Shown here in pieces: positions 9,723 to 61,727 of a stretch of DNA of 64,000 bases. Within the stretch, counting starts at the first letter, position 1. The number at the start of each line of letters is the position of its first letter. Made by a program: the position numbers and the translations under genes. Below the pieces are notes generated by a model. That model saw only the letters and a list, made by a program, of their open reading frames with translations, did not search any database and had not been told where the DNA came from. Source of the DNA: an uncultured Ignavibacteriaceae bacterium (GTDB lineage Bacteria > Bacteroidota > Ignavibacteria > UBA10030). The DNA is taken from NCBI GenBank assembly GCA_964480945.1, contig CAYZRX010000008.1, forward strand, positions 4,572 through 68,571. The letters are read 5' to 3'.

Positions 9723-11105
9723 ATGCGCAGTCGACCATTTCTCCTCATCCTTCTTTCGCACATCATTCTTTCGGCAGCCCTCGTCGCACAGACACAGGGT
9801 TCTGAGCCGTACGACTCCCTCGCACACCAGACTGTGAAGGAGGCGCTGGGGTCCAACAAAGCGTACGAGATGCTCTCCGATCTCTGCACGAACGTCGGCC
9901 ACAGGCTGAGCGGTTCGCCTGCGGCGGCGAAAGCGGTACAGTGGGCAGAGAAGAAAATGCAGGAACTCGGATTCGATAACGTGCATCTGGAGCCCGTGAT
10001 GGTCCCTCACTGGGTACGCGGGCCTTTCGAGCGCGCGTATGTTCTTAATCCATCGGGAAAACGCGAAAATCTCGCGATCGCTGCGCTCGGAGGTACCATC
10101 GGCACACCGAAAGGAGGCATCACGGCAGAAGTCCTCGAGGTCAAGTCATTTGAAGAGTTGCACAAGCTCGGTGAGAAAGCGAAAGGCAAGATTGTCTTCT
10201 TCAGCCGTCCGATGGATCGCACGCTCGTCAATACGTTTGAAGCCTACGGAAGAGCCGTGGATCAGCGCGGGGCCGGCGCAGTCGAGGCCGCCAAGGTCGG
10301 CGGCGTTGCAGCCTTGGTGCGGTCGATGACAACGCGACGCGACAACGTGCCCCACACCGGAGCGATGCATTACGATGACTCGGTAAAGAAAGTGCCGGCC
10401 GCGGCAGTGAGCATCATCGGCGCGGAACGGTTAAGCGCGCTGGTTGCCTCGGGAACGCCCGTGCGCGTCCATATGGAATTCTCTGCCCAAACCCTGCCCG
10501 ATGTCGAATCAGCCAACGTCATTGGCGAGCTGAGAGGAACGGAGAAGCCGGAGGAGGTCATCGTCATCGGTGGACATCTGGATAGTTGGGACAAAGGTCA
10601 GGGAGCAAACGATGATGGCGCCGGGTGCGTTCAGTCGATCGAGGCTTTGCGTTTGCTCAAGACGCTCGGGCTGAAACCGAAGCGCACCATTCGCGCAGTG
10701 ATGTTTATGAACGAGGAGAACGGATTGCGCGGCGGCATCGCTTACGCCGAGAAGCAACGGCCCGGCGAAAAGGCCGTCGCGGCGATTGAGTCGGATATGG
10801 GAAGCTTCCAGCCGGTGGGTTTTGGGATCGGCGATTCTGCCGCTTATGAGAAGCTCCTTCCTTGGGCTCCCGTGTTCAGATTCCTCAATGCCGACCATTT
10901 CCAGCTCGGCGGGGGCGGTGCCGATATCAGCCCCCTCGCGCGCCAGGGAGTGCCGCTCATGGATTTGATACCCGAGGTCCAGCGCTACTTCGACTATCAC
11001 CACTCCGACAATGATACAATTGAAGGCGTCAATGAGCGCGAGCTTGCGCTCGGCGCCGCTGCTCTCGCGATCTTCTCCTACATAATCGCGCAGGAAGGCT
11101 TGTAA
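9723..11105 (+). CDS. M28 family aminopeptidase with PA domain, secreted
   Basis: Signal peptide present. Zn-ligand motifs IGGHLDSWDKGQGANDDGAGC and FMNEENGLRGG. Confidence 0.85.
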   Translation: MRSRPFLLILLSHIILSAALVAQTQGSEPYDSLAHQTVKEALGSNKAYEMLSDLCTNVGHRLSGSPAAAKAVQWAEKKMQELGFDNVHLEPVMVPHWVRGPFERAYVLNPSGKRENLAIAALGGTIGTPKGGITAEVLEVKSFEELHKLGEKAKGKIVFFSRPMDRTLVNTFEAYGRAVDQRGAGAVEAAKVGGVAALVRSMTTRRDNVPHTGAMHYDDSVKKVPAAAVSIIGAERLSALVASGTPVRVHMEFSAQTLPDVESANVIGELRGTEKPEEVIVIGGHLDSWDKGQGANDDGAGCVQSIEALRLLKTLGLKPKRTIRAVMFMNEENGLRGGIAYAEKQRPGEKAVAAIESDMGSFQPVGFGIGDSAAYEKLLPWAPVFRFLNADHFQLGGGGADISPLARQGVPLMDLIPEVQRYFDYHHSDNDTIEGVNERELALGAAALAIFSYIIAQEGL

Positions 11106-12293: not shown

Positions 12294-12590
12294 CACCGAC
12301 GAATCGTGCCGGACGGATCATGCCGGGTGACGCGAGGCCCGACATACCCAGGCAGTAGCGCATCGGCTGCTCTGACGGTCACAAACCGATGTGACGGGCT
12401 TAGATCCGTTGCCTGACTCCTGGGACAACATCTGCCGTACATTGGCTGCGTCGGGATCCACCAACTCTCTTGATCCCCCCATTAACACTTTGCTCTACGT
12501 CCATCTTTCCATTCATCCGCTGTCAAATTGGCTTTTCGATAAAAATTGAATAAACTTTCGGAGTCTTCTCTTCACACCGGGAGGTTCACC

Positions 12591-14744
12591 ATGACGAAAC
12601 GTTCTCTGTTCCTTTCGTTCACCCTTGTTGTCTTTCTCGCGGTCGGTCTTGCTGATGAGGGGATGTACCCGATCAGCGAGATCCACAAGCTCAACCTGCG
12701 GGCAAGGGGCCTAAAGATCGATCCGAAGGAGCTTTACAACCCGAACGGCGTAAGTCTCATTGATGCGATCGTTCAGCTCAGCGGCTGCACCGGATCGTTC
12801 GTCTCGAAGGATGGCCTCATTCTCACCAATCATCACTGCGCGTTCGGATTTGTCCAGGCCGCCAGCACGGCGGAGAAGGATTATGTGACGGACGGTTTCA
12901 TCGCCTGGAATCGATCCGAGGAGATCCCCGCAAAGGGCCAGACGGTCCGCATTACGGAGTCCTATCGCGATGTCTCCAAACAGGTTCTCAGCGCCGTCAG
13001 TGACAGAATGGAGTTGGCTGAACGGTCCAAGGCCATCGATCGAGCAATGCGTGCGATCGTCGTCGAGACGGAGAAGCGGAACCCCGGCAAGCGCGCCGAG
13101 GTGGCGGAGATGTTCGCCGGCAAGACGTACGTACTCTTTGTGTACACCTATCTGAGGGATGTCCGCCTCGTGTATGTCCCCCCGCGGTCAATCGGAGAAT
13201 TCGGGGGCGAGAACGACAATTGGGTTTGGCCGCGGCATACAGGAGACTTCTCGTTTTTCCGCGCGTACGTCGCTCCGGACGGCTCCCCGGCGGATTATTC
13301 CGCTGACAACGTTCCGTATCACCCGAAGAAGTTCCTCAAGGTAAATCCCTCCGGCGTCGATGAGGGAGACTTCGCCTTCATCCTGGGTTACCCCGGGCGG
13401 ACGTACCGACACAGAACATCCCACTACCTCGCGTACGAGGAGAAGTACCGGATGCCGTACGTCGCGGACCTCTACGAGTGGGAGATCGCCACGATGGAGC
13501 AAATGGGGAAGAACGACCGGGAGATTGCGCTGAAGCACGATGCGCGTATCAAAGGACTGGCGAACACCATGAAGAACTACCGTGGTAAACTGCTCGGTAT
13601 GAAGCGGCTCTCTCTCGTGGACCGTAAGTTTGAAGAGGAAGAAGCTCTGCAGCGGTTCATCGAATCCGACCCCGCTCGAAAGGCACTTTACGGTGCAGTT
13701 CTCGATGAGATCGGCAAGATTTATCAGGAAATGTCCGATCAAGCGGCTTCCGAGCTCGTTCTTGACTACCTTCGCAGGAGTTCGACGATGCTGGGGTACG
13801 GCTTCGCGGTGTACGAATCCACTCTGGAGCTCCAGAAGCCGGACCTGGAGCGGCTCTCCCCCTACACGGAGCGGAATCTCCCCAATACGAAGAAGTACCT
13901 GCCCCGGGCCCTCCAAAACTATTATGAGCCCACTGATAAGGCAATTCTCAAACACATGTTGATGCAGGCCGCCAACCTGCCACAGGCTCAACGCATACCT
14001 GCAATTGATGAAATCATTCAGGGAGGAAACGCCGAGGAGGCGATCGATCGGTTCATTCAAGACGCATTCGCTCAATCGAAACTGAACGACGAACGATTCC
14101 TGATGGATTCCTTCGGGAAGAAGCCAGCCGAAGTCGAGCAAATGGATGACCCGTTCGTTCAGCTCGCCAGGGCACTGTATCCAACCTATCAGAAGTTGCG
14201 TGAGATCCGCCAGCAGCGCAACGGCGCTCTGTCAAAGCTGTCGGCGCTCCTGGTGGATGTCAAGCAGCAATTCCAGAGGACAAGCTTCATTCCCGACGCG
14301 AACAGCACACTGCGCCTGACGTTCGGGCATATCAAAGGCTACTCGCCTCGCGATGCAACCTACTACAAGCCGATCACGACACTCACCGGCGTCATAGAGA
14401 AGACGACGGGCGAATATCCGTACGGCACGCCTCAGAAGGTCCGCGATCTTTACAACGCAAAGGACTTCGGGCGCTACCGCAACGCCAAGCTGAACGATGT
14501 CCCCGTTGCAATTCTGTACGACATGGACACGACCGGCGGGAATTCCGGAAGCCCCGTGCTGAACGCGCGCGGCGAACTTGTGGGGGTAAATTTCGATCGC
14601 GCATTCGAAGCCACGATCAACGACTACGCATGGAGCGAGTCGTACAGCCGATCGATCGCCGTGGATATCCGCTATGTTCTCTGGGTGACGGAGAAAGTCG
14701 GAGGCGTAAGCTACCTTCTGGCAGAGATGGGTCTTCAGCGCTGA
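12591..14744 (+). CDS. S46 family dipeptidyl-peptidase (DPP7/DPP11-like)
   Basis: Signal peptide (MTKRSLFLSFTLVVFLAVGLA). Conserved S46 N-terminal block GCTGSFVSKDGLILTNHHCAFG. Catalytic Ser region GGNSGSPV near the C-terminus. Confidence 0.85.
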   Translation: MTKRSLFLSFTLVVFLAVGLADEGMYPISEIHKLNLRARGLKIDPKELYNPNGVSLIDAIVQLSGCTGSFVSKDGLILTNHHCAFGFVQAASTAEKDYVTDGFIAWNRSEEIPAKGQTVRITESYRDVSKQVLSAVSDRMELAERSKAIDRAMRAIVVETEKRNPGKRAEVAEMFAGKTYVLFVYTYLRDVRLVYVPPRSIGEFGGENDNWVWPRHTGDFSFFRAYVAPDGSPADYSADNVPYHPKKFLKVNPSGVDEGDFAFILGYPGRTYRHRTSHYLAYEEKYRMPYVADLYEWEIATMEQMGKNDREIALKHDARIKGLANTMKNYRGKLLGMKRLSLVDRKFEEEEALQRFIESDPARKALYGAVLDEIGKIYQEMSDQAASELVLDYLRRSSTMLGYGFAVYESTLELQKPDLERLSPYTERNLPNTKKYLPRALQNYYEPTDKAILKHMLMQAANLPQAQRIPAIDEIIQGGNAEEAIDRFIQDAFAQSKLNDERFLMDSFGKKPAEVEQMDDPFVQLARALYPTYQKLREIRQQRNGALSKLSALLVDVKQQFQRTSFIPDANSTLRLTFGHIKGYSPRDATYYKPITTLTGVIEKTTGEYPYGTPQKVRDLYNAKDFGRYRNAKLNDVPVAILYDMDTTGGNSGSPVLNARGELVGVNFDRAFEATINDYAWSESYSRSIAVDIRYVLWVTEKVGGVSYLLAEMGLQR

Positions 14745-22779: not shown

Positions 22780-23982
22780 CTACTTCCTCGATTTCAGAAG
22801 ATCGATCTCCTCCGTCGAAACCTGCTGGTCGATTTCTCTGATCAGATCGCTGACCTGAGCATGACGCAGATCGAATTCTTCAAACGACACAAACGTGCTG
22901 AGATCCCCGATATCGACCACCTTTCCCATTAGCTTCCTCACGCCTGTCTTCGGATCCACCTCTTCGTCGACATTGATGCCGATGTCGACGGTGACGGCCG
23001 GTGCACGATCATCGGTCTTCAACATGGTGTTTCGAAAGATGAGGTCGTACATGTACTTTGTATTGAACGGAAGTTCCTCGTACACGCTCACGTTTGCGTG
23101 TTGATATTCTCCTGTCGCAAGAGCATGGAGCGTCGTCAGCAGACCGACGTAGTTCAGCTTCCGGAGAAACATCTTCTCTGGATCTCCGGGCCACCCTCCT
23201 GACTCCACCAGCACGGTGCTCGTCCCCCACTTCTGCACATTGTCTCCAAAGGCGCGCGGCTCAAAGGTATCATCGTATTTCGAGACATTCTTTGGAATGA
23301 ACTTCCGCAAGACCGCGGCAAACGTCGCCGCAACCTTCATCGCTTCCGATCGAACACGATTCAAGGACCTCGATTCATCGAATGCCGGCGCAAGCAGTGC
23401 GATGCCGCTCACCTGTTTCGTGTTCCCCACTGTCGTGCGCGGATCCTGGTCGTGAAGATTGAACCCAAACTCCGGCCGATATCGGTCGCACACTTCCTTC
23501 AAAACGCGCGCCTCCGGCGTCCTCAATGCCAAGGCATCGCGGTTCATATCGACCAGCTGCGCCGTCCGGCGCTGGAACCTCTCGGCGCCATCGGGATTCA
23601 GCATAGGGACCATCAAGAGCGTTAATTGATCCGAGATTGCCGTCGCGACGGGATGATCAGCGGTCTTCACGAAAAAGCTCAGCATATCGAGCAGCGCCAT
23701 CGTGGCTGTCGACTCATCGCCATGCATCTGAGACCAGAGCAACACCTTCGTCTTCCCGCGACCGAGCTTCAACAATGAGATCGGTCGTCCCTCTGCCGAC
23801 TGTCCGATCGGCGTTATCTCAAAGACGTTCGACGCGCGGAGCGGCTCGAGCCACCGCAACATAGTTGCCTGCGTGAAGCGCCGCGACGAAATTTCTGCGA
23901 GCCGATACGTGGTATATGTATCGGACAATTCGCGCGCAATCTTCGCCTGTCCTTGCGCGCTCGTGACAGAGCCAGTGCTCAT
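22780..23982 (-). CDS. M14 family zinc carboxypeptidase-like protein
   Basis: 400 aa; HGDE zinc-binding motif (LLWSQMHGDESTATMA) and an M14-like fold. Confidence 0.65.
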   Translation of the reverse strand: MSTGSVTSAQGQAKIARELSDTYTTYRLAEISSRRFTQATMLRWLEPLRASNVFEITPIGQSAEGRPISLLKLGRGKTKVLLWSQMHGDESTATMALLDMLSFFVKTADHPVATAISDQLTLLMVPMLNPDGAERFQRRTAQLVDMNRDALALRTPEARVLKEVCDRYRPEFGFNLHDQDPRTTVGNTKQVSGIALLAPAFDESRSLNRVRSEAMKVAATFAAVLRKFIPKNVSKYDDTFEPRAFGDNVQKWGTSTVLVESGGWPGDPEKMFLRKLNYVGLLTTLHALATGEYQHANVSVYEELPFNTKYMYDLIFRNTMLKTDDRAPAVTVDIGINVDEEVDPKTGVRKLMGKVVDIGDLSTFVSFEEFDLRHAQVSDLIREIDQQVSTEEIDLLKSRK

Positions 23983-26082: not shown

Positions 26083-26793
26083 ATGCGCTTAGCAATCAAC
26101 ATCGATCACATTGCCACACTCCGAAACGCCCGCGGCGGATCGGAGCCGGATCCTGTCGAGGCAGCTGGGGTTTGCGAAGCCGCGGGTGCACTCGGTATCG
26201 TCTGTCATTTGCGGGAGGATCGCCGCCACATCCGCGATGCCGATGTGCACCTCCTGCGAAAGACGATCAAGACGAAGCTCGATCTCGAGATGGCCGCAAC
26301 CGACGAAATCATCAAGATCGCGATCGAGGTGAAACCGGCCTTCGTCACACTGGTTCCCGAGCGGCGCCGGGAGCTGACGACGGAGGACGGACTGGATGTG
26401 AAGGCAAACAAAGCTCACCTTGAGGAGACGATTGGGACGTTTCATCGGCACGGCATCAAGGTCAGTCTCTTCATTAATCCGGTTCAGGAACAGATCGAGC
26501 TCTCGAAATCGATCGGCTCCGATATGATTGAGATTCACACCGGGGAGTATGCCGAGGCGCGCGACGAACAGGAACGTCAGAACCAACTCGCGCGCGTTCA
26601 GCACGCGGCCCGAAGCGCCAAGTCGCTCGGCCTGGACGTCCACGCCGGTCACGGGCTCAACTATGGGAACGTCACTCCGATCGCCGCAATCCAGGAGATC
26701 GACGAATTGAGCATCGGTTACGCCATCGTTGCGCGCGCGATGTTCGTCGGCTTGGATCAGGCGGTACGAGAAATGCTCCGCCTCGTCCACTAA
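26083..26793 (+). CDS. pdxJ: Pyridoxine 5'-phosphate synthase
   Basis: MRLAINIDHIATLRNARGGSEPDPV...CHLREDRRHI is the PdxJ signature. Confidence 0.9.
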   Translation: MRLAINIDHIATLRNARGGSEPDPVEAAGVCEAAGALGIVCHLREDRRHIRDADVHLLRKTIKTKLDLEMAATDEIIKIAIEVKPAFVTLVPERRRELTTEDGLDVKANKAHLEETIGTFHRHGIKVSLFINPVQEQIELSKSIGSDMIEIHTGEYAEARDEQERQNQLARVQHAARSAKSLGLDVHAGHGLNYGNVTPIAAIQEIDELSIGYAIVARAMFVGLDQAVREMLRLVH

Positions 26794-26839
26794 TTTCTCT
26801 GAAGCACATCGGGAAGCGAATGATCCCGGGGAGGTACTC

Positions 26840-29260
26840 ATGCGACCGTTATCGGCTATCTTCTTCAGTCTCCTCATCCCCTCGCTGGTCCTGGGCCAGG
26901 GGAAATATCCGTCATATTATCAGCAGAGCGATTTTCTTCTAACGTCACCTGGGGCGATGACGTTCGGCCTTTACGGCTTCGACAACCCGGCGCTCCCTTC
27001 GCTGCTCCGTGAACCCGACTTCGCGTTCCTCTGGACGGATCAAACCGGCAGATGGAATGATTTCAACCACTGGGGATTTTTCGCTGCAGCACCGCATGTC
27101 GGATTCGGCCTCATCCATCAGAAAATCGGCTCCCTCTACGTCACCGACTATCGCCTTTCGCTCGCGTCGGGTAACAGGACCGTGAGCTTCGGCATTGGCT
27201 ATGGCTGGTCAACCGGGTACACGCGCACGTTCAATCGGTCGAGCCTCGTTACAGTCGGAAGTTTGTTTCGACCGGGTTTCTTTCTCTCATTGGGGCTTGT
27301 CGGCACGTTCGGCATGCAGAGCACCACCACCAACGAGGGCATGGTCGACCTTGCCATTCGACCCTTCAGGAGCGAGCTGCTCACGCTCTTCAGCGACTAC
27401 GCTTTGCAGAGCCGACAAAGCCTTGCCGATGGCCATTGGAGCGCCGGGGCCGCACTCGAGGCTCTGCCCGGAATCCGGATCACAGGGCGCTATTTCGATT
27501 CGAAAGGGTTCGCCCTCGGCGTCCAGTTCAGCCTGGGCCGCGTCGGCCTGACAACACAGGCTCATTATGACGAGAATCGACAGTATGGCTACAATACCTA
27601 CGGAATCCGGCTCGGTGCGTTCGACCGGACGCTGTTGAAAGGGCACGGGACCAGTTATCTCGATCTGAGCTTGCTCGGGCCCCTCAAGTACCAGCGATAT
27701 CAGCTTTTCGACAGGTCGAACACGCTCGAAGGGCTCCTCGAAACCATCGACGCAGCCAAAGAGGATCCGGCCGTTGCCGGGATTTCCATCAACACCTCCG
27801 GCATGACCGCGGACAAAGAGCTTCTCTGGGAGATACGGGAAAAGCTGAGGGACTTCAAATCGACCGGGAAGCATGTAGTGATATTCATCGACCGCGTCGG
27901 GATGAATGAATATCACTTCGCCTCTGTCGCGGACAGGATCGTGATGGACACGCAGGGGATGATCCAAATCGGCGGGTTTGTCATGGGTCGCACGTACCTC
28001 AAAGGGACGCTCGAGAAGGTTGGGATCGGGTACGATGAGTGGCGCTTCCTGAAGTACAAATCCGCTTACGAGAATCTCTCCCGCGACAACATGTCCGACG
28101 CCGACCGGGAACAGCGGCAGAAGCTTGTCGACGATTCCTACAGGCTCGCCAAAGCGGATATCTGCACGGGTCGAGGCTTTACTCCGCAGCAGTTTGACAA
28201 CATGATCAACGACGAGGTTGTCTATCTCCCGCAGGACGCTCTCGCGAAGGGCTTGGTCGACACTCTGGGGAGGTGGGAGACCGTCAAAGATATCATCGGG
28301 AACCTAGAGGGTGGGGAAAAGAGATTCGTCGGCGCCGGATCGCTGGAGAAATTTATCCAGCCGACCGATAACCGCTGGAGCGAGCCTCCGAAGATCGCCG
28401 TTGTCTACGCGCTGGGTGCCTGCGCCATGGATCAGGGCACTACAGCCCGGAAACTGGTTCGCGACGTCCAGGCCGTCGTCGACGATCCGAATGTGAAAGC
28501 CATCGTGCTGCGCGTCGACTCCCCCGGCGGAGATGCGATGGCGTCCGATTACATAGCGGAAGCGTTGAAGAAAGCCAAAGGAAAGAAACCGGTCATTGTT
28601 TCGCAGGGGGCCGTTGCAGGCTCAGGCGGGTACTGGCTCTCGATGTACGGCGATACGATCGTCGCCGCACCCACGACGATCACCGGCTCCATTGGCGTCA
28701 TCGGCGGGTGGGTCTACAACAAGGGAATAAAGGAAAAGTTGGGGATGTCCACCGACTATGTCAAGATAGGCGAGCACGCCGATCTGGGATTCGGCTTCAC
28801 TCTGCCTTTCATCGGCCTGGGCTTACCCGACCGTGACCTGACCGAGCCCGAGCGGTCAAGAATGGAATACACCATCAAGACGATGTATAATGAGTTCGTT
28901 CGCAAGGTGGCCGATGGACGGAAAAAAAACCCGGATCAAATTGAGGCCATTGCCCAGGGCCGGGTTTGGTCGGGGTACGACGGGTTGAAGAACGGCCTGG
29001 TGGATGTCCTCGGCGGTCTCGAGACAGCAGTCGACATCGCCAAAGAGAAGGCCGGTATCCCTCGAATGCAGGAGGTAACGATCCTCGAGCTCCCGAAAAC
29101 GGGATTGATCGATTTCAGCCGGTTTATCCCCCGGTTCTTCGGGCTCGAAATCAAGGAAAAGGATGCGGTTCTGGCACATCTGCAATTCGTCTTGGCACAC
29201 AACGGTCAACCGATGCCCATTTTACCTCTTGAAGACATCGATTTCTCGCGTCTCTACTGA
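26840..29260 (+). CDS. sppA: Signal peptide peptidase SppA (67K type, two S49 domains) with an N-terminal beta-barrel-like extension of about 290 aa
   Basis: ATG at 26840 followed by a signal peptide (MRPLSAIFFSLLIPSLVLG). S49 motifs IVLRVDSPGGDAMAS and GSGGYWLSM; a second degenerate S49 domain precedes them. The N-terminal region is Gly/aromatic-rich with alternating hydrophobic residues, not a simple TM anchor. Confidence 0.8.
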   Translation: MRPLSAIFFSLLIPSLVLGQGKYPSYYQQSDFLLTSPGAMTFGLYGFDNPALPSLLREPDFAFLWTDQTGRWNDFNHWGFFAAAPHVGFGLIHQKIGSLYVTDYRLSLASGNRTVSFGIGYGWSTGYTRTFNRSSLVTVGSLFRPGFFLSLGLVGTFGMQSTTTNEGMVDLAIRPFRSELLTLFSDYALQSRQSLADGHWSAGAALEALPGIRITGRYFDSKGFALGVQFSLGRVGLTTQAHYDENRQYGYNTYGIRLGAFDRTLLKGHGTSYLDLSLLGPLKYQRYQLFDRSNTLEGLLETIDAAKEDPAVAGISINTSGMTADKELLWEIREKLRDFKSTGKHVVIFIDRVGMNEYHFASVADRIVMDTQGMIQIGGFVMGRTYLKGTLEKVGIGYDEWRFLKYKSAYENLSRDNMSDADREQRQKLVDDSYRLAKADICTGRGFTPQQFDNMINDEVVYLPQDALAKGLVDTLGRWETVKDIIGNLEGGEKRFVGAGSLEKFIQPTDNRWSEPPKIAVVYALGACAMDQGTTARKLVRDVQAVVDDPNVKAIVLRVDSPGGDAMASDYIAEALKKAKGKKPVIVSQGAVAGSGGYWLSMYGDTIVAAPTTITGSIGVIGGWVYNKGIKEKLGMSTDYVKIGEHADLGFGFTLPFIGLGLPDRDLTEPERSRMEYTIKTMYNEFVRKVADGRKKNPDQIEAIAQGRVWSGYDGLKNGLVDVLGGLETAVDIAKEKAGIPRMQEVTILELPKTGLIDFSRFIPRFFGLEIKEKDAVLAHLQFVLAHNGQPMPILPLEDIDFSRLY

Positions 29261-29303
29261 CGCCACTTTTACGGCATTCTGCCTGACAAGGGAGGATTTC
29301 ACA

Positions 29304-30764
29304 ATGACGAACGCACGCACTCTATTCATTTTCCTCTTCCTTTTCCCCCTCGCGGCGCTTTCCCAGGTTGGGTTCCCGCCGTTCACCAACGACTTTCCCC
29401 CGGAAGAGTTCGCTCAGCGGCGCGGCGGGGTTTATGATGCCATCGGGATCGGCGCCGTCGCACTCGTGCAGGGCGCGCCGAGCCCCACCGCCTACGTCCG
29501 GTTCCGACAATCCAATGAATTCTATTATCTCTGCGGCATCGAGGTCCCCCACGCGTACCTTCTCCTCGACGGTACCCAGAGGCGCGCCGCCCTGTACCTC
29601 CCCCATCGAAACCAAGGTCGAGAGCGAAGCGAGGGCAAGCTACTCTCCGCTGAGGATGAGGCGCTCATCAATCAGCTTTCCGGCATCGACGCGGTTTACG
29701 GCCTTGATCTTCTCGCTGAACACCTCGGCCGCCTCGCAAGAAACAGCTCCGTGAAAAGCCTGTATACGCCGTTCAGTCCGGCCGAGGGCTTCGCGACCAG
29801 CCGAGACCTCGCCGTGCGCTCCAACAATGACGTGATGGCCGATCCCTTCGACGGGCAGGCCTCCCGGGAAGATCGGCTTGTACAGCTTCTTCACTTGCGA
29901 TTTCCGCAGTTTGAAGTACGTGACCTCTCTCCGATACTGGACAACCTGCGGTTGATCAAGAGCCCGCGCGAGATCGCGTTGATCAAGAAGGCGACGATCC
30001 TCTCCGGCCTGGCATTGATGGAATGTATGCGCTCGACGAAGCCGGGTATCATGGAGTACGAGCTCGACGCAGCGGCAAAATACATCTACTATCGACACGG
30101 CGCACAGGGAGAAGCCTATTTCTCCATCGTCGCAAGCGGCCCGAACGCTCTCCTCGGGCACTACCACGCAGGCAAGCGACGGATGGAGGACGGGGACCTT
30201 GTGCTGATGGATTTCGCTCCCGACTTCGGCTACTATATGAGCGACCTAACGCGCACGTGGCCCGTAAACGGGAAGTTCAGCGCTTCACAGCGTGAACTGT
30301 TCGTGTTCTACACCAGCTGCTACCGCGCGATCCTCAAGGCAATCCGGCCCGGTGCGACCGCTCAGGCCATTCTGCAGGATGCGGTGAAAGAAATGGATGG
30401 AATTCTGACCGGAACGAAGTTCTCCAAGCCGTCTTACGAGAAAGCCGCGAACTCCTTCGTCAGCGGTTTTCGAGCATCGGCGAGAAACCCGCGGGCCAGG
30501 TTAGGCCATTGGGTCGGCATGGCCACCCACGATGACGGGGAGGACAGCGGACCACTTCGGGCCGGCATGGTCTTCACCATAGAACCCGCGTTCAGCATTC
30601 CGGAGGAGCAAATCAACATCCGATTCGAGGACCTCATCGTGATTGGAGAGAGACGCGCCGAGATCCTCTCCGATTTTGTGCCCCTGGACGTCGATAGCAT
30701 CGAGAAACTCATGCGCGAGCCTGGCTTGCTCCAACGCTATCCGCGCTCAGAGATGATGAAGTAA
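29304..30764 (+). CDS. Xaa-Pro aminopeptidase (M24B), secreted
   Basis: ATG at 29304 after GGAGG; signal peptide present. M24 metal-ligand regions (VLMDFAPDFGYYMSDLTRTWP, HWVGMATHD, FTIEPAF). Confidence 0.8.
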   Translation: MTNARTLFIFLFLFPLAALSQVGFPPFTNDFPPEEFAQRRGGVYDAIGIGAVALVQGAPSPTAYVRFRQSNEFYYLCGIEVPHAYLLLDGTQRRAALYLPHRNQGRERSEGKLLSAEDEALINQLSGIDAVYGLDLLAEHLGRLARNSSVKSLYTPFSPAEGFATSRDLAVRSNNDVMADPFDGQASREDRLVQLLHLRFPQFEVRDLSPILDNLRLIKSPREIALIKKATILSGLALMECMRSTKPGIMEYELDAAAKYIYYRHGAQGEAYFSIVASGPNALLGHYHAGKRRMEDGDLVLMDFAPDFGYYMSDLTRTWPVNGKFSASQRELFVFYTSCYRAILKAIRPGATAQAILQDAVKEMDGILTGTKFSKPSYEKAANSFVSGFRASARNPRARLGHWVGMATHDDGEDSGPLRAGMVFTIEPAFSIPEEQINIRFEDLIVIGERRAEILSDFVPLDVDSIEKLMREPGLLQRYPRSEMMK

Positions 30765-31244: not shown

Positions 31245-31736
31245 ATGAACACCGGTCAGACGCTTCTTACCATCGTGGCGATCGTGTTGCTGGGATCGAA
31301 CGTCGTCAGCGTCAACAGAACGTTCGCGCAACATGGCGTCATCCTTCAGCAGACGGAGATCGGAATTTTCGGGATCTCTCTCGGGATGTCCATCATCGAA
31401 GAATCTCAGGGCAAAGCATTCGATCAGGCGACCGTGGACAGCGTAGCGGCGACGGTCAACGATTTGAGCACGACCCTGGGGCGAGAGTCCGGCGAGATAG
31501 CGCGGACCGACTTCAACGACTTCGATGACTACAACGGCTGGCGTGACACGATGTACGTGCAGGGTGTGGATCGGTTCAGGCGATGGGCTACCGTATGCTA
31601 CGTCGACACATCGAACCTGGACGGCTCCTCCGCCAACCGAACGTGGCATAAGAAGCTTACGGTCTACGTGAAAGCCGACAACTCGCAAGATACGGTCAAG
31701 ATGTCCTACATTTTCAGCTACTGGTCATTCCGGTGA
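31245..31736 (+). CDS. Cassette 1 gene A: small N-terminally anchored pseudopilin-like protein (GspI/PilV-like candidate)
   Basis: 163 aa starting MNTGQTLLTIVAIVLLGSNVVSV (short polar leader plus one hydrophobic helix). RBS AAGGAGAG. Paralog of 34098-34592; the N-terminal 60 aa are about 90% identical and the C-terminal SYIFSYWSFR is conserved. Confidence 0.6.
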   Translation: MNTGQTLLTIVAIVLLGSNVVSVNRTFAQHGVILQQTEIGIFGISLGMSIIEESQGKAFDQATVDSVAATVNDLSTTLGRESGEIARTDFNDFDDYNGWRDTMYVQGVDRFRRWATVCYVDTSNLDGSSANRTWHKKLTVYVKADNSQDTVKMSYIFSYWSFR

Positions 31737-31745
31737 GGTGACATC

Positions 31746-32393
31746 ATGGGTGCTAGCACAATATTCGACATTGTGAGCTCAACGGTCGTGGGCTCTCTTC
31801 TCCTGCTGATGGCCCTGCGGCTCAATGCGCAGGCGGTGGAGACGAACGCCGTCTACCAGAACAACCTCAACCTTCAGCAAAGCATCGTTGCTTTGGTGGA
31901 TGTGGTCGAATCCGATTTTCGCAAAATCGGCTACTGCAAGGATTTCCACAAGATTCAGCCCCCGAACATTGCCATCGTTTCCGCTGATTCCAATGCCATC
32001 AAGTTCATGACGGACGTTCCGAGCAGCCCGGGTGATATGGGCGACGGCGTGGTGGACACAATCGAGTACTACCTGGGACCGACCAGTGAGCTTGCAAGCA
32101 CGCCCAACCCGGATGATCGATATCTGTACCGCATCGTCGACGGAAACAAGGGGAAAGGCTGGAACCTGGGTGTGACGCAGTTCAGCTTGAGGTACTACGA
32201 TGCGCTTGGCGATACGATTCCTTTCCCGGTCCCGGATCCCAGGCTCATCTACACAATGGAAGTCAATATCTCTCTGGAGAGTCCGGCACCGCTGTTGAAA
32301 TCAGAATACACCTCGGCGGCCGCGGACTCGGCAGACTACAAAGTGTACTGGCGGCAGATTCGCCTGGCATCACGAAATCTTCGAAACCGTTAA
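31746..32393 (+). CDS. Cassette 1 gene B: pseudopilin-like protein (GspJ/PilW-like candidate)
   Basis: 215 aa with an N-terminal hydrophobic helix (IFDIVSSTVVGSLLLLMAL). About 90% identical to its paralog 34597-35244. Starts 9 bp after gene A, so operonic. Confidence 0.6.
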   Translation: MGASTIFDIVSSTVVGSLLLLMALRLNAQAVETNAVYQNNLNLQQSIVALVDVVESDFRKIGYCKDFHKIQPPNIAIVSADSNAIKFMTDVPSSPGDMGDGVVDTIEYYLGPTSELASTPNPDDRYLYRIVDGNKGKGWNLGVTQFSLRYYDALGDTIPFPVPDPRLIYTMEVNISLESPAPLLKSEYTSAAADSADYKVYWRQIRLASRNLRNR

Positions 32394-32408
32394 GGAGGGA
32401 GGCTCGTC

Positions 32409-33623
32409 ATGGGTAAAGCATCGCTTTTGATGGTCATCGGGTTCAGCACTGCTCTGTTGATGATCGGCTCGAACATCTCCAAAGTCTCCAACAGCGCTAT
32501 GGACAATTATCTGTCCTACTACAGATCCAGCATGGCACACGACATTGCCGCCGCAGGGACAAATATGGCCGCCCGAGCGCTCTGGGAGAACATGGCTTGG
32601 AAAGCTGGCTTTGGACGCAAGTCGTTCATGGGCGGAACTTTCCAGTCAACGGTCACCGACCTCGGCATGAACCAGGTCAAAGTTGTAACTACGTCGACGT
32701 ACATGGATGAGACCTCTGTAATCTCCGTGATTCTGCAACCGAGCAGTTTTTCCCGGTTCGGCTACTACAGCGTCCAGGAAGGCAACATCTTCTGGATCAC
32801 CGGCGATACGGTGTGGGGACCGATGCACACGCAGGACAACTTTCATGTCTCCGGCGACCCTGTTTTCATGCAGCGAGTGACATCGCTGAAGGGTCTGCAG
32901 AAGAACAACAAATCCGACCATCCGCAGTTCCTGGGCGGCTACGAGAGCGGGGTCAACGTCTCGCTCCCTTCGAATCTGACTCCACTCGTGAATGCTGCCG
33001 GCAATGGCGGGAAGCTCTTCACCGGCGGCGACTCCGTCTGCATACAGTTTCAGTCGAACGGCAACGTGAAGTGGAAACAGGGCGCGACCAATGGGTGGAA
33101 TACCGACCCACTCTCGAGTTTCGCGCCGAATGGTGTCATCTACGTGCAAGGTGCAAATATGCACGTCTCCGGCACGCTGTCAGGCAGAGTGACCGTCGGG
33201 GCCGGTGGAACAAATGGCAACAGCAAACAAGGCAATATCTACATTGATGATGATGTAAAGCTGAATTCCAATCCACAACAAGGTTCGTCTTCGGACATGC
33301 TGGGACTGGTAGCTGAGAACGATGTGATCATTACGGACAACGTTGCCAACAAGAAAGACGTGGTAATCCAGGCTTCAGTGTTTTCCCGAAGCGGCAGTTT
33401 TGAAGCGGAGAACTACGACAAGCGTGCTGTGTCCGGCACGATCCAGCTTCTGGGAGGAATAATACAAAGCCAAAGGGGCCCCGTCGGGACTTTCAGCGGC
33501 AACCCGCCAAAACTCGTAAGTGGATATCTGAAGAACTATATGTACGACACCCGGTTCCTGTACGATGCGCCACCCTATTTCCCCACCACGGGAAACTTCG
33601 AGATCGTCTCTTGGTTTGAGTAG
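32409..33623 (+). CDS. Cassette 1 gene C: PilX_N/GspK-like N-terminal domain protein with beta-helix-like body (candidate tip/adhesin subunit)
   Basis: 404 aa; N-terminus MGKASLLMVIGFSTALLMIGSNISK...SSMAHDIAAAGTNMAARAL resembles the PilX N-terminal domain architecture (TM helix, then an A..AA.AG helix). Repeated GD..G / I.I.DN segments suggest a parallel beta-helix. Strong RBS AAGGAGGGAGG. Confidence 0.55.
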   Translation: MGKASLLMVIGFSTALLMIGSNISKVSNSAMDNYLSYYRSSMAHDIAAAGTNMAARALWENMAWKAGFGRKSFMGGTFQSTVTDLGMNQVKVVTTSTYMDETSVISVILQPSSFSRFGYYSVQEGNIFWITGDTVWGPMHTQDNFHVSGDPVFMQRVTSLKGLQKNNKSDHPQFLGGYESGVNVSLPSNLTPLVNAAGNGGKLFTGGDSVCIQFQSNGNVKWKQGATNGWNTDPLSSFAPNGVIYVQGANMHVSGTLSGRVTVGAGGTNGNSKQGNIYIDDDVKLNSNPQQGSSSDMLGLVAENDVIITDNVANKKDVVIQASVFSRSGSFEAENYDKRAVSGTIQLLGGIIQSQRGPVGTFSGNPPKLVSGYLKNYMYDTRFLYDAPPYFPTTGNFEIVSWFE

Positions 33624-33660
33624 TTTCGTATAGAACGTTCACCAGGCTCGCCTCCCCCAA

Positions 33661-33687
33661 AGATCGCCCTCGCGGCGATCTTTTTTT
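33661..33687 (+). terminator. Rho-independent terminator of cassette 1
   Basis: AGATCGCC-ctcgc-GGCGATCT hairpin followed by TTTTTTT, 38 bp after the gene C stop. Confidence 0.8.
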
Positions 33688-33969
33688 GTACTCGCGTCTT
33701 GCGGAAACGTGCGCATGAGCGTGCGTCCCGTCACAGAGCAGAGGAACGCGTACGACGATCAAGACGTTATGAGCTGCTCTGAGGAATGTTCGCCCGCCAT
33801 ATTCGCCAATCTTTTCAGGAAGAAGTATTCGCGGGTTGGGCGGCTATTTATTGGTGGGAGGAGCAATTTCGGATGAGCCTCGTCGCGGCCGGCGACACCG
33901 GGCTTGATTCTTCCCGGCGAGCTGACGACAAAGTGTCTTGCAGCAATTGGCGAGTGTGAGAGGGGTCAT

Positions 33970-33998
33970 TTGACGTTGTTCCGAAAATCGATTATAAT
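33970..33998 (+). promoter_or_regulatory. Consensus sigma70-type promoter for cassette 2
   Basis: TTGACG, a 17-nt spacer, then TATAAT (perfect -10, near-perfect -35). About 95 nt upstream of the cassette 2 ATG. Confidence 0.6.
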
Positions 33999-34097: not shown

Positions 34098-34592
34098 ATG
34101 AACACCGGCCAAACGCTCCTCACCATTATCGCCATTGTGCTTCTGGGTTCGAACGTCGTTAGCATCAACAGGACGTTTGCGCAGCACGGCGTGATCCTCC
34201 AACAAACGGAGATCGGCATCTTCGGCATCTCGCTCGGCATGTCGATCGTCGAGGAGGCCCAGGGTAGAGCGTTCGACGAGAACACGATCGACAGCCTTGC
34301 CCAGACTACGAATCAGCTCAGCTCAGCGCTCGGCCGGGAATCCGGTGAAACAACACTCCACACCGGCTTCGACGATTTCGATGATTATAACAGTTGGAGC
34401 GATTCCGTCTCCGTGCCGGGCGTTGACATCTTCAAACGATGGGCCACCGTTGTCTATGTAGACTCCACCAATCTCGACGGCACAGCGAGTGGACGGAGGT
34501 GGAGCAAGAGGCTGGATGTCTTCGTAAAAGGCACCAGCTCCCAGGACACGATGAAGCTCTCCTACATATTCAGTTACTGGTCATTCAGGTGA
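34098..34592 (+). CDS. Cassette 2 gene A: small pseudopilin-like protein (paralog of 31245-31736)
   Basis: 164 aa; MNTGQTLLTIIAIVLLGSNVVSI...; RBS GAGGGAGG. The central region has diverged from its paralog while the termini are conserved. Confidence 0.6.
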   Translation: MNTGQTLLTIIAIVLLGSNVVSINRTFAQHGVILQQTEIGIFGISLGMSIVEEAQGRAFDENTIDSLAQTTNQLSSALGRESGETTLHTGFDDFDDYNSWSDSVSVPGVDIFKRWATVVYVDSTNLDGTASGRRWSKRLDVFVKGTSSQDTMKLSYIFSYWSFR

Positions 34593-34596
34593 CGCC

Positions 34597-35244
34597 ATGG
34601 GTGCTAGCACAATCTTTGATATCGTCAGTGCGACTGTCGTCGGCTCGCTGCTTCTTCTGATGGCACTGCGGCTCAACGCACAGGCCGTCGAAACGAATGC
34701 CGTGTACCAGAACAATCTGAACCTTCAGCAGAACATCGTGGCGTTAGTCGACGTTGTGGAATCGGACTTCCGGAAGATCGGCTACTGCCGAGACTACACG
34801 AGAATTCAACCGCCGAACAGCGCCATCATCAGCGCCGATTCGAACTCTATCAAGTTCCTCACCGATATTCCGAGCAGCCCGGGTGATATGGGTGATGGCG
34901 TTGTCGACACGGTCTATTACTACCTCGGACCGACCAGCGAGCTTGCGAGCACGCCCAACCCAGACGACCGATATCTGTACCGGATCGTCAATGGAAACAC
35001 TGCGAAGGGCTGGAACCTCGGTGTCACACAGTTTAGCCTGAAGTACTATGATGCGCTGGGGGACACGATCCCATTTCCTATCCCCGACCCCCGATTGATC
35101 TACACGATGGAAATCAACATCTCACTCGAAAGCCCCGCGCCCCTGACGAGGATCGAATATACAACGGCGGCTGCGGACTCGGCGGATTTCCGGGTGTACT
35201 GGCGGCAGATTCGCCTCGCCTCACGCAATTTGCGGAACCGATAA
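34597..35244 (+). CDS. Cassette 2 gene B: pseudopilin-like protein (paralog of 31746-32393)
   Basis: 215 aa, about 90% identical to the cassette 1 homolog. Confidence 0.6.
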   Translation: MGASTIFDIVSATVVGSLLLLMALRLNAQAVETNAVYQNNLNLQQNIVALVDVVESDFRKIGYCRDYTRIQPPNSAIISADSNSIKFLTDIPSSPGDMGDGVVDTVYYYLGPTSELASTPNPDDRYLYRIVNGNTAKGWNLGVTQFSLKYYDALGDTIPFPIPDPRLIYTMEINISLESPAPLTRIEYTTAAADSADFRVYWRQIRLASRNLRNR

Positions 35245-35259
35245 GGAGAGGAGCATACC

Positions 35260-36495
35260 ATGGGTAAAGCGGCGCTTATTATGGTCATGGGATTCAGCAC
35301 GGCACTGCTGATGATCGGGTCCAATATCTCCAAGATCTCGAATCGGGCGATGGACAATTACGTCCACTACTACAATTCCAGCATGGCGCATAACGTCGCC
35401 GCAGCGGGCACCAACATGGCTGCTCGAGCGCTCTGGGAAAATTTCGCCTGGCAAGCCGGGTTCTCCAACAAGAAGTTTGCCGGCGGCACATTCAACACCA
35501 CCGTGACGACCGCCGGTGTCAACCAAATCCGGCTGACAACGACCTCGACATTCCAGGGTGAGACGGCAACCATCTCCGTGCTGCTCCAGCCCAGCAGTTT
35601 CTCACGTTTCGGCTACTACAGCAATATCGAAGGAAACATCTGGTGGATCACGGGGGACACGGTGTGGGGACCCATGCACACGCAGGACAACCTCCGCGTC
35701 TCAGGCGAGCCGGTGTTCATGCAAAGGACCACCTCGCTCAAGAGCATCATCTACGACCACGGGCCTCCCCCAAGGGACAATCCCAAGTTCCTGGGAGGAT
35801 ACGAAACCGGAGTAAATGTGAGCCTGCCGTCCGATCTCACCCCTTTGCTGACAGCGGCGAACAATGGCGGAAAAGTGTTCAACGGTCCGGACTCCGTCTA
35901 TATTGAGTTTCAGTCGAACGGAAACGTGAAATGGAAGCAGGGAGCTGCCTCCCCGTGGAGTGTCGACCCCCTCTCAACGTTTGCCCCGAACGGGGTCATC
36001 TATGCCAACGGGACGAACGTCCACGTCAGCGGGACGATAAGCGGGAGAGCGACCCTCGGTGCTGGAGGAACGACCGGCAACAACAAGCGCGGCAATATCT
36101 TCATCGACGATGATATCTTCTATGCACATGACCCCGGCGCAGGGTCTTCCACCGATCTGTTGGGGCTCGTCGCGGAAAACAATATCCTCATCTCGGACAA
36201 TTCCGCCAATAACAACAATGATGTTACGATTCAAGCATCGTGTTTCTCCCGTTCAGGCGGTTTCACGGCGGAGGATTACGGCAGCCGCGGTGTGGAGGGG
36301 CGAATCAAGCTCCTTGGTGGAATCCAACAGAACAAAAGAGGCGCGGTTGGAACCTTCGACACCGACAGACACGGCGACCCATATCTGAAGAACGGTTATC
36401 TGAAGAATTATCTCTATGATAGTCGGCTTATGTACGACGCACCCCCGTTCTTCCCGACAACCGGCAACTATGAGATCATCTCATGGTTTGAATAA
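35260..36495 (+). CDS. Cassette 2 gene C: PilX_N/GspK-like N-terminal domain protein with beta-helix-like body (paralog of 32409-33623)
   Basis: 411 aa, about 70-75% identical to the cassette 1 homolog. The same N-terminal A..AAAGTNMAARALWEN motif and C-terminal ...EI.SWFE. Confidence 0.55.
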   Translation: MGKAALIMVMGFSTALLMIGSNISKISNRAMDNYVHYYNSSMAHNVAAAGTNMAARALWENFAWQAGFSNKKFAGGTFNTTVTTAGVNQIRLTTTSTFQGETATISVLLQPSSFSRFGYYSNIEGNIWWITGDTVWGPMHTQDNLRVSGEPVFMQRTTSLKSIIYDHGPPPRDNPKFLGGYETGVNVSLPSDLTPLLTAANNGGKVFNGPDSVYIEFQSNGNVKWKQGAASPWSVDPLSTFAPNGVIYANGTNVHVSGTISGRATLGAGGTTGNNKRGNIFIDDDIFYAHDPGAGSSTDLLGLVAENNILISDNSANNNNDVTIQASCFSRSGGFTAEDYGSRGVEGRIKLLGGIQQNKRGAVGTFDTDRHGDPYLKNGYLKNYLYDSRLMYDAPPFFPTTGNYEIISWFE

Positions 36496-36538
36496 TCGGA
36501 GTTGAGACCGTCGTGGCTTGCGTAGCAGAGCTTTACAG

Positions 36539-36566
36539 AGATCGCCCCCGCGGCGATCTTTTTTTG
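36539..36566 (+). terminator. Rho-independent terminator of cassette 2 (near-identical to the cassette 1 terminator)
   Basis: AGATCGCC-cccgc-GGCGATCT followed by TTTTTTT. Confidence 0.8.
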
Positions 36567-36726
36567 ATCCCCCTGAACTCTGTGCACCGGGTCAAGCAGT
36601 TTGTACTGGAAATTGCAGAAATTAGTATCAAGATTATAACCATCTGGCTAGTTTCCGACACAATCGCGGGGGCACACGGCATTTCACAGAAGTCCACCAT
36701 CCATCGAGTATCCTCTCTTTAACGCC

Positions 36727-59125: not shown

Positions 59126-59231
59126 TTAGCTCGTCAGATGTTTGTTTGAATCGTTGAATTCCACTCACGTTTTCTTTACCTTTTTTATCACTCTCCTGAA
59201 CCCCTTCATCAACCACGAGGAGCAACAATCC

Positions 59232-61625: not shown

Positions 61626-61727
61626 ATCGGGCGATCGAGCCATCGAACCATTTCAAGGCGAGTCACATGCCGATGAGAAGATACGTCGATGAATCAAGAG
61701 TTTGAGTTTTCTCACGGGAGGCTTTCC

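Follow-up and report, generated by a model that had tools for sequence, protein, structure and literature searches.

Can a type IV filament be built from subunits that lack the prepilin signature? The question is raised by three closely packed, co-directional genes in a 64,000-nt stretch of DNA from an uncultured Ignavibacteriaceae bacterium (contig CAYZRX010000008.1; the whole stretch is hereafter called the window). All three are read from the forward strand: gene A (31245-31736, 163 aa, starting MNTGQTLLT), gene B (31746-32393, 215 aa, starting MGASTIFD) and gene C (32409-33623, 404 aa, starting MGKASLLMVIGF). A preliminary description, which covered positions 31245-32420 and ended 12 nt inside gene C, had read their products as pilin-like anchors with non-canonical N-termini. 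According to reviews, class III signal peptides (the PilD/GspO/TadV type) have 6-26 hydrophilic leader residues ending in Gly, then Phe or Met at +1 and a hydrophobic stretch broken by Glu5 (PMC4471445). The A, B and C proteins resemble these in having a Gly near the N-terminus and about 20 hydrophobic residues opening a long alpha-helix, but differ in leader, in the +1 residue and in Glu5. The same holds for a family of small proteins, named MGQQQ after their first residues, that are encoded beside pilus machinery in related genomes and are treated below as candidate major pilins. The data presented here indicate that A, B, C and their paralogs are very probably minor pilins. Most likely, they are the minor-pilin set of an Ignavibacteria-specific type IVa-like pilus, priming its assembly and forming its tip.

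The N-termini given in the preliminary description (MNTGQTLLTIVAIVLLG, MGASTIFDIVSSTVVGSLLLLMAL and MGKASLLMVIGFSTALLMIG) coincide exactly with the starts of the open reading frames. In-frame stop codons lie 9, 3 and 5 codons 5' of A, B and C, respectively, and 7, 14 and 5 codons 5' of A', B' and C', the genes of a second copy of the cassette found 475 bp further downstream (34098-36495). A ribosome-binding site of the GGAGG/AGGAG type is present within each short gap preceding the ATG. Because of the stops 3 to 14 codons upstream and of the Shine-Dalgarno sites, a longer leader cannot be encoded. Wrong start codons or pseudogenes were rejected as explanations on these grounds and from the conserved starts of homologs. 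Only 1-3 residues precede the conserved Gly, as compared to the reported 6-26 of a hydrophilic leader. The 1-4 residues found before the helix are uncharged in A, in B and in the MGQQQ proteins, while C carries a Lys or Arg at position 3-4.

Database searches brought up 637 homologs of A, 673 of B and 910 of C that keep these N-termini, which are full-length and start alike in essentially all cases; the number of residues ahead of the helix varies by two at most within the families. The first 25 residues hold more information than the remainder of each protein: 3.60 versus 3.05 bits in A, 3.53 versus 3.29 in B and 3.28 versus 2.91 in C. In family alignments of 111-112 sequences, Gly is invariant at position 4 of A and at position 2 of B and C; since it is retained, the departure from the signature is limited to Phe and Glu, and the earlier suggestion that Gly too was lacking does not stand. 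In gene A (112 sequences), no variation occurs at G4, Q5 or L8 and hardly any at T9, giving the pattern M[NG]TGQxxLT. Numbered after Gly4, the protein has Gln at +1 and, as pointed out previously, Thr at +5; counted from Met1, the Gln is Gln5. In gene B, Gly2 and Asp8 are invariant (the Asp is at +6 after Gly2, and at position 6 in a shorter form of the protein). In gene C, M1 and G2 are invariant and followed by Lys or Arg, and the helix contains no acidic residue. A Phe at +1 is absent from all three proteins, again as first described.

An exhaustive profile search with B returned 861 clusters at 50% identity, across which the N-terminus is again conserved. In the 150 best of these, full-length proteins begin either with MG-x-S-T-[IL]-x-D or, two residues shorter, with M-[SAT]-x-x-L-D; longer leaders and GFTLxE motifs do not occur among them. 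No homolog of the three proteins was found to carry the standard motif. Likewise, the Pfam N_methyl and TIGR02532 models gave no match, at E values up to 1, to A, B, C, their paralogs or the MGQQQ proteins. Altogether, these alignments argue that selection has conserved the N-termini of A, B and C, which are the product of neither chance nor decay. The combination of a short extension of nearly constant length and of an N-terminus that is the best conserved part of the protein is typical of the assembly helix of pilins.

The fold of gene C links it to a known pilin. The AlphaFold2 model of C (predicted local distance difference test, or pLDDT, of 91) comprises a helix at residues 3-60, a four-strand sheet at 68-113, a large beta-rich domain and, at 393-403, a conserved last strand. 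When this model was compared to solved structures with Foldseek, three chains of ComZ from Thermus thermophilus (6QVI) came out on top, with E values between 2e-9 and 2.5e-7 and a probability of 1.0. These chains are the sole significant structural matches of the model in the PDB. ComZ, which together with its partner PilA2 makes up a competence-pilus tip complex, shares with C the succession of long N-terminal helix, small sheet, large beta-rich domain and final strand, and both genes stand beside genes for smaller minor pilins. The likeness has its bounds: C has 404 aa, fewer than the 498-518 residues of the crystallised chains, the global TM-score is just 0.40, sequence similarity between the two is undetectable, and a profile search of C against PDB sequences produced only noise. 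In its published description, ComZ is a tip pilin of the GspK-like type that the PilFind program misses; its hydrophobic helix occupies residues 5-27, a beta-solenoid is inserted ahead of the last strand, and the protein binds DNA together with PilA2 (PMC6561018). All cyanobacterial PilX homologs have also been reported to contain a beta-solenoid, proposed to act as a tip plug (bioRxiv 10.64898/2026.02.12.705559). As modeled, C is by its fold a protein of the ComZ/beta-solenoid PilX kind, and the order of its elements fits an inserted solenoid. Gene C also has a weak match to DUF4900, as do 53 of 103 members of the family. One difference from Thermus is that the neighboring pilins PilA1-3 are canonical there and detected by PilFind, whereas both partners of C, the A and B proteins, are non-canonical, as are the candidate major pilins.

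Additional genes for the solenoid protein occur in related genomes apart from any A and B of their own (L001, 9998-11248; L017, 2-3930; L019, 4169-8357; L080, 7176-11215), with up to three C genes following one another. The presence of such orphan and multiple copies suggests that the C proteins might be exchangeable tip modules.

Gene B appears weakly related to the minor pilins of the PpdB/PulJ(GspJ)/PilW type. It matches the NCBIfam model PRK10557, "prepilin peptidase-dependent protein", with an E value of 3e-4 over its N-terminal 70 residues only, and 56 of 111 members of the family match as well. Homologs of B are labeled PulJ (JGI) or, weakly, PF27121 PpdB in source annotations. No match was obtained on scanning the 111 family members with the Pfam copy used, nor did a profile search of B against PDB sequences return anything. 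An Ala-Gln-Ala triplet is found at residues 28-30, directly after the hydrophobic helix (31827-31835, and 34678-34686 in B'). It is present in close relatives, is lost in the wider family and would probably score as a signal peptidase I site.

Gene A always heads the A-B-C unit. Its AlphaFold2 model (pLDDT 88.9) consists of a 53-residue helix (residues 3-55), hydrophobic at about residues 6-23, and of a five-strand sheet. Models of both A and C thus display the long helix packed on an antiparallel sheet that characterizes pilins. Profile-profile comparisons of A with B and of B with C were not significant.

The homologs appear to come from Ignavibacteria only. Of 298 genome matches obtained with gene C, the best 80 fall in genomes with an Ignavibacteria or Melioribacteraceae label, in metagenome-assembled genomes labelled more broadly, or probably wrongly, as Bacteroidota or Chlorobiaceae, and in the isolate Rosettibacter primus. 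The A-B-C order is near-universal across 84 loci, in one to three tandem copies and occasionally with extra C paralogs. In one locus (L065, 8872-9985), A and B are each broken into two short open reading frames while C is intact; either the cassette is decaying or the assembly contains frameshift errors. In nine loci, the cassette adjoins one or two small genes (115-135 aa) whose products start with MGQQQLLLIVLGVIIVGIAI, a T2SSF/PilC gene (E 8e-28; NCBIfam PilC, 1e-40), a gene for a 596-aa PilB-like T2SSE ATPase (2.5e-104), another for a 411-aa PilT-like T2SSE ATPase (3.5e-37) and PilM/N-like genes. The arrangement is complete in L081, where a single strand encodes, in order, two pilins, PilC, PilB, A, B, C, PilT, PilM/N, a 294-aa protein, a secretin (PF00263, E 5e-28) and response regulators. 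Metagenome loci yielded the same picture. Among those long enough for judgement, about 20-30 contain an operon in which one to three pilin genes are followed by PilC, PilB, PilT, M/N, a protein of about 300 aa (p304) and a secretin; 19 reach the secretin gene, and in 12 A-B-C is immediately adjacent to the operon.

The gene following PilT, which encodes 513-567 aa (L053, 1594-3135, reverse strand; L081, 12711-14414, forward strand), has a faint match to PilN (E 8e-4) and another to the PilM-like family of Akkermansia Amuc_1101 (E 0.014). To judge from these matches, it may be a PilM-PilN fusion. The approximately 300-aa protein encoded after it has no match whatever. A related cluster is known from the same superphylum. 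The "type II secretion-like" cluster of Cytophaga hutchinsonii also has highly divergent minor pseudopilins, and it groups with type IVa pili, not with classical type II secretion systems (T2SS; PMC6668835). That cluster, however, has a Peptidase_A24 gene of its own, CHU_3197 (PMC5553014), while the Ignavibacteria operon described above has none and does include a PilT-like ATPase.

The small genes at the head of the operon (L053, 7651-8534, reverse strand; L081, 4414-5299, forward strand; also in L033, L048, L061, L065, L067, L068, L082 and about 80 metagenome loci, L085-L164) define the MGQQQ family. They are always first in the conserved pilin-PilC-PilB-PilT-PilM/N-p304-secretin operon. Their products start MGQQQLLL and have a GGGG loop behind the helix. 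At least 540 relatives came up when metagenomes were scanned with the family. Gln4 and Gln5 are invariant, while the residue following Gly is Gln or Thr. The best PDB matches of the MGQQQ profile, over the hydrophobic and amphipathic helix, are to Geobacter PilA, although they are non-significant (E 0.14-0.56). Because of these matches and of the small-pilin layout, we consider the MGQQQ proteins as candidate major pilins, and A-B-C as the minor set. When A was aligned to the MGQQQ proteins with hhalign, the two families matched over the first 20 residues only, anchored at Met, with Q5 on Q5 and L7L8 on L7L8; the match is weak (E 0.009).

The organization of the cassette recalls known minor-pilin sets. 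GspI-GspJ-GspK, which form the tip of the T2SS pseudopilus, and PilV-PilW-PilX, the core minor pilins of type IVa pili, likewise consist of three co-transcribed subunits that grow in size from first to last. GspK and PilX are known to lack Glu5, as does C, the largest subunit here. By contrast, GspI/PilV and GspJ/PilW, as far as is known, keep a normal leader and Glu5, unlike A and B. Another difference is that the A-B-C cassette contains no GspH/FimU-like fourth subunit. Structure searches, moreover, did not place A with GspI/PilV. By analogy with these systems, A, B and C would each be anchored in the inner membrane by the N-terminal hydrophobic helix, and the three helices would bundle into a GspI-J-K/PilV-W-X-like complex that starts the filament on the PilC/PilB platform. 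The beta-solenoid of C would then close off the tip and act there as an adhesin or receptor, in line with proposals made for Thermus ComZ and cyanobacterial PilX, and the two cassettes in the window would supply alternative tips. In cyanobacteria, separate minor-pilin sets within one genome prime separate pili (bioRxiv 10.64898/2026.02.12.705559).

A further element of this model concerns the charges. The invariant Asp of B and the invariant Lys/Arg of C are the only charged residues in these helices, and both are present in 114 of 114 B-C pairs. Since they are always present, no covariation between the two positions could be detected. The Asp of B and the Lys/Arg of C might well form a salt bridge within the tip complex: the pair (position 3-4 for the residue in C) may replace the usual contact between Glu5 and the N-terminus. 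In A and in the candidate major pilins, a neutral Gln, invariant as Gln5 counted from Met1, would stand at the usual place of Glu5. We propose that these pilins are translated already mature, losing at most the initiator Met, and that no prepilin peptidase cuts them. The proposal as a whole, made of the minor-pilin set and of this mechanism, is about evenly balanced in our estimate.

Could A, B and C be something other than pilins? One way to account for a short N-terminus and a hydrophobic stretch is that signal peptidase I removes a Sec signal peptide, leaving soluble periplasmic or secreted proteins. The Ala-Gln-Ala of B, located just past the hydrophobic stretch, and a Thr-Phe-Ala at residues 26-28 of A would suit this idea. 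Sec signal peptides are expected to be poorly conserved, the opposite of what is seen at the N-termini of A, B and C, whose first 25 residues are the most conserved part. In addition, the N-terminal ends of A and B are free of positive charge (B even has an Asp there), the Ala-Gln-Ala is not maintained in the wider family, and the AlphaFold2 models predict with high confidence a continuous helix (3-55 in A, 3-60 in C). With C matching a tip pilin and the genes linked to pilus machinery, signal peptidase I processing is very improbable. A second view, already entertained in the preliminary description, is that the proteins stay in the inner membrane as permanent single-pass proteins, for instance platform accessories, and never enter a filament. 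The absence of both a cleavable leader and Glu5 speaks for this view, as does the lack of a significant match between A and any solved pilin. Foldseek returned nothing below E 0.24 for the A model, the best pilin being Streptococcus sanguinis PilA (E 1.3, TM 0.35), and a profile search against PDB sequences found nothing, so that A is assigned by architecture and gene position alone. On the other hand, C has the fold and domain order of ComZ, a GspK-type tip pilin, B resembles PpdB/PulJ, the order and sizes of the genes (about 165, 210 and 400 aa) mirror GspI-J-K, and the PilM/N-like platform parts are encoded by separate genes of the same operon. Membrane-resident proteins of this kind are thus unlikely, if less so than secreted ones. 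The identification as minor pilins, better supported than either, has its own weak points besides the poor matches of A: the scores of B and B' with PRK10557 are far under the curated cutoff (20-22 bits versus 120), the MGQQQ proteins match no Pfam or NCBIfam model, and neither pilus machinery nor canonical pilins were found in the 64-kb window, for which reason the linkage to machinery rests on related genomes.

The remaining issue is maturation. Here, an even chance is what we would give to these pilins escaping cleavage, and we slightly favor this possibility over cleavage after Gly. Several observations suggest that the proteins are not cut. Ahead of the helix, A, B and the MGQQQ proteins bear no positive charge that a peptidase would have to take away. 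The helix is not preceded by any Gly in about 10% of the homologs of A and B (examples are MSxMLDLIGS in B and MTQIFLG in A). Counted from Met1, A and MGQQQ both have an invariant Gln5 followed by Leu7-Leu8, a register that derives from the weak profile alignment mentioned above. No peptidase A24 gene is present in the complete L081 operon or in the other conserved operons. Furthermore, a crude motif screen of about 2.2 Mb of related loci found no class III motif and, in the gene flanks to which it was confined, no peptidase A24 (GxGDxK[LF]). With so rough a motif, and with prepilin peptidase genes often lying away from the pilus loci, the screen is only weak evidence. Finally, the Melioribacter roseus genome paper lists pilB, pilC, pilT and pilQ as found, and pilA and pilD as not found, although this annotation, which dates from 2013, may have overlooked a divergent peptidase.

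The same minor pilins could nevertheless be processed in the conventional way, by an unlinked and possibly divergent A24 prepilin peptidase acting after the conserved Gly. The leader lost would be Met-Gly in B, C and the candidate major pilins, and Met-Asn-Thr-Gly in A. Glu5 would then be unneeded, because the new N-terminal Gln of A and of the candidate major pilin can cyclise to uncharged pyroglutamate. The near-N-terminal Gly is invariant in most members of all four families, at position 2 in the main forms of B, C and MGQQQ and at position 4 in those of A. Met-Gly is also a good substrate for methionine aminopeptidase, and loss of Met would shift the "Gln5" register by one. Gly at -1 is the one residue strictly required by prepilin peptidases, and leaders are shortened in some systems (PMC4471445). 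Genes for these enzymes are often unlinked and common to several systems (PMC6668835). Moreover, a different Ignavibacteriales genome has been reported to encode a canonical PilA-like pilin (PMC7399161), which suggests that some members of the order have a peptidase. Yet an uncharged leader of two residues falls far outside the reported 6-26 aa (PMC4471445), about a tenth of A and B homologs are without a Gly before the helix, and in the candidate major pilins it is the residue following Gly that varies (Gln or Thr) while Gln4 and Gln5 do not. Taking into account also the operons lacking an A24 gene and the report on M. roseus, we regard cleavage after Gly as a real though lesser possibility.

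The second cassette in the window repeats the organization of the first on the same strand. Gene A' (34098-34592, 164 aa, 73% identical to A) starts MNTGQTLLT, as A does; gene B' (34597-35244, 215 aa, 88% identical to B) starts MGASTIFD and matches PRK10557 with an E value of 1e-4; gene C' (35260-36495, 411 aa, 70% identical to C) starts MGKAALIMVMGF and has a weak DUF4900 match. Identity between copies is far higher for B than for A or C, a pattern that would fit a conserved core subunit with diversifying exposed subunits. Cassette 1 is closed by a hairpin resembling an intrinsic terminator (33659-33683, or 33659-33691 with the T-run, forward strand), with a 10-bp stem (AAAGATCGCC..GGCGATCTTT) followed by TTTTG, and cassette 2 by a near-identical hairpin (36537-36561, or 36537-36569 with the T-run, forward strand). 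A sigma-70-like promoter match is found 5' of cassette 2 (33970-33998, forward strand; TTGACG-17-TATAAT, 11 of 12 positions), as a match to consensus alone. The 5' regions of the two cassettes do not align beyond the start codon, and so no shared regulatory element was identified. Two tandem cassettes are arranged alike in the related genome L006; given this identical arrangement, the duplication may be old.

The neighbors of the cassettes in the window encode SppA, aminopeptidase P and a D-serine dehydratase-like enzyme. The first two lie immediately 5' of the cassette, an adjacency absent in those related loci whose annotations were examined. The window as a whole is unusually rich in peptidase genes (9723-11105, 12546-14744, 22780-23982, 26729-29260, 29163-30764, 59142-61625 and 61689-63800), which specify M28, S46 dipeptidyl-peptidase, M14 carboxypeptidase, S49 SppA and M24 aminopeptidase P enzymes, as well as two S9 enzymes resembling prolyl oligopeptidase or DPP-IV. 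From its gene content, this richness points to a protein-degrading lifestyle.

Reviews list as defining and nearly universal traits of type IV filaments a class III leader, cleavage at Gly-1, the Glu5 residue and a prepilin peptidase dedicated to the task (PMC4471445, PMC6668835). PilFind, the N_methyl models and the pilin profiles of MacSyFinder all search for features of this sort, and the MGQQQ proteins probably escape the motif-based finders. A non-canonical start is already documented for ComZ; what is unusual here is that the whole candidate pilin repertoire of one machine is non-canonical. The preliminary description, whose pilin-like reading is supported, had called a whole set without the motif unusual, an understatement considering that the candidate major pilins lack it too. 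Our literature searches found no prior description of leaderless pilins, of an Ignavibacteria pilD or of these motifs, nor of a PilB/PilC/PilT/secretin system whose candidate major pilin and minor pilins are all without the signature across a whole class.

In conclusion, a complete PilB/PilC/PilT/secretin machine apparently operates throughout a whole class of bacteria with candidate pilins, major and minor, that fall outside the current definitions, and this may be the reason why pilA was missing from the Melioribacter paper. In its strongest form, the proposal would have Ignavibacteria make a retractile type IVa pilus wholly from "leaderless" pilins, peptidase-free, with Gln replacing Glu5 in the core of the filament and an Asp (B)-Lys/Arg (C) pair in the tip complex; we put this forward tentatively. 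If the pilins are uncleaved, they would go against the general dependence of type IV filaments on a dedicated prepilin peptidase, and would test what the leader and Glu5 are for, be it membrane orientation, subunit registration or neutralisation of the N-terminal charge. Should the cut instead fall behind a two-residue leader, the minimal prepilin peptidase substrate would be redefined. In either case, models built on these families can be used to annotate several hundred clusters now labeled "hypothetical protein", and the solenoid of C, by analogy with the tip pilins it resembles, is a likely adhesin or receptor of these polysaccharide-degrading bacteria.

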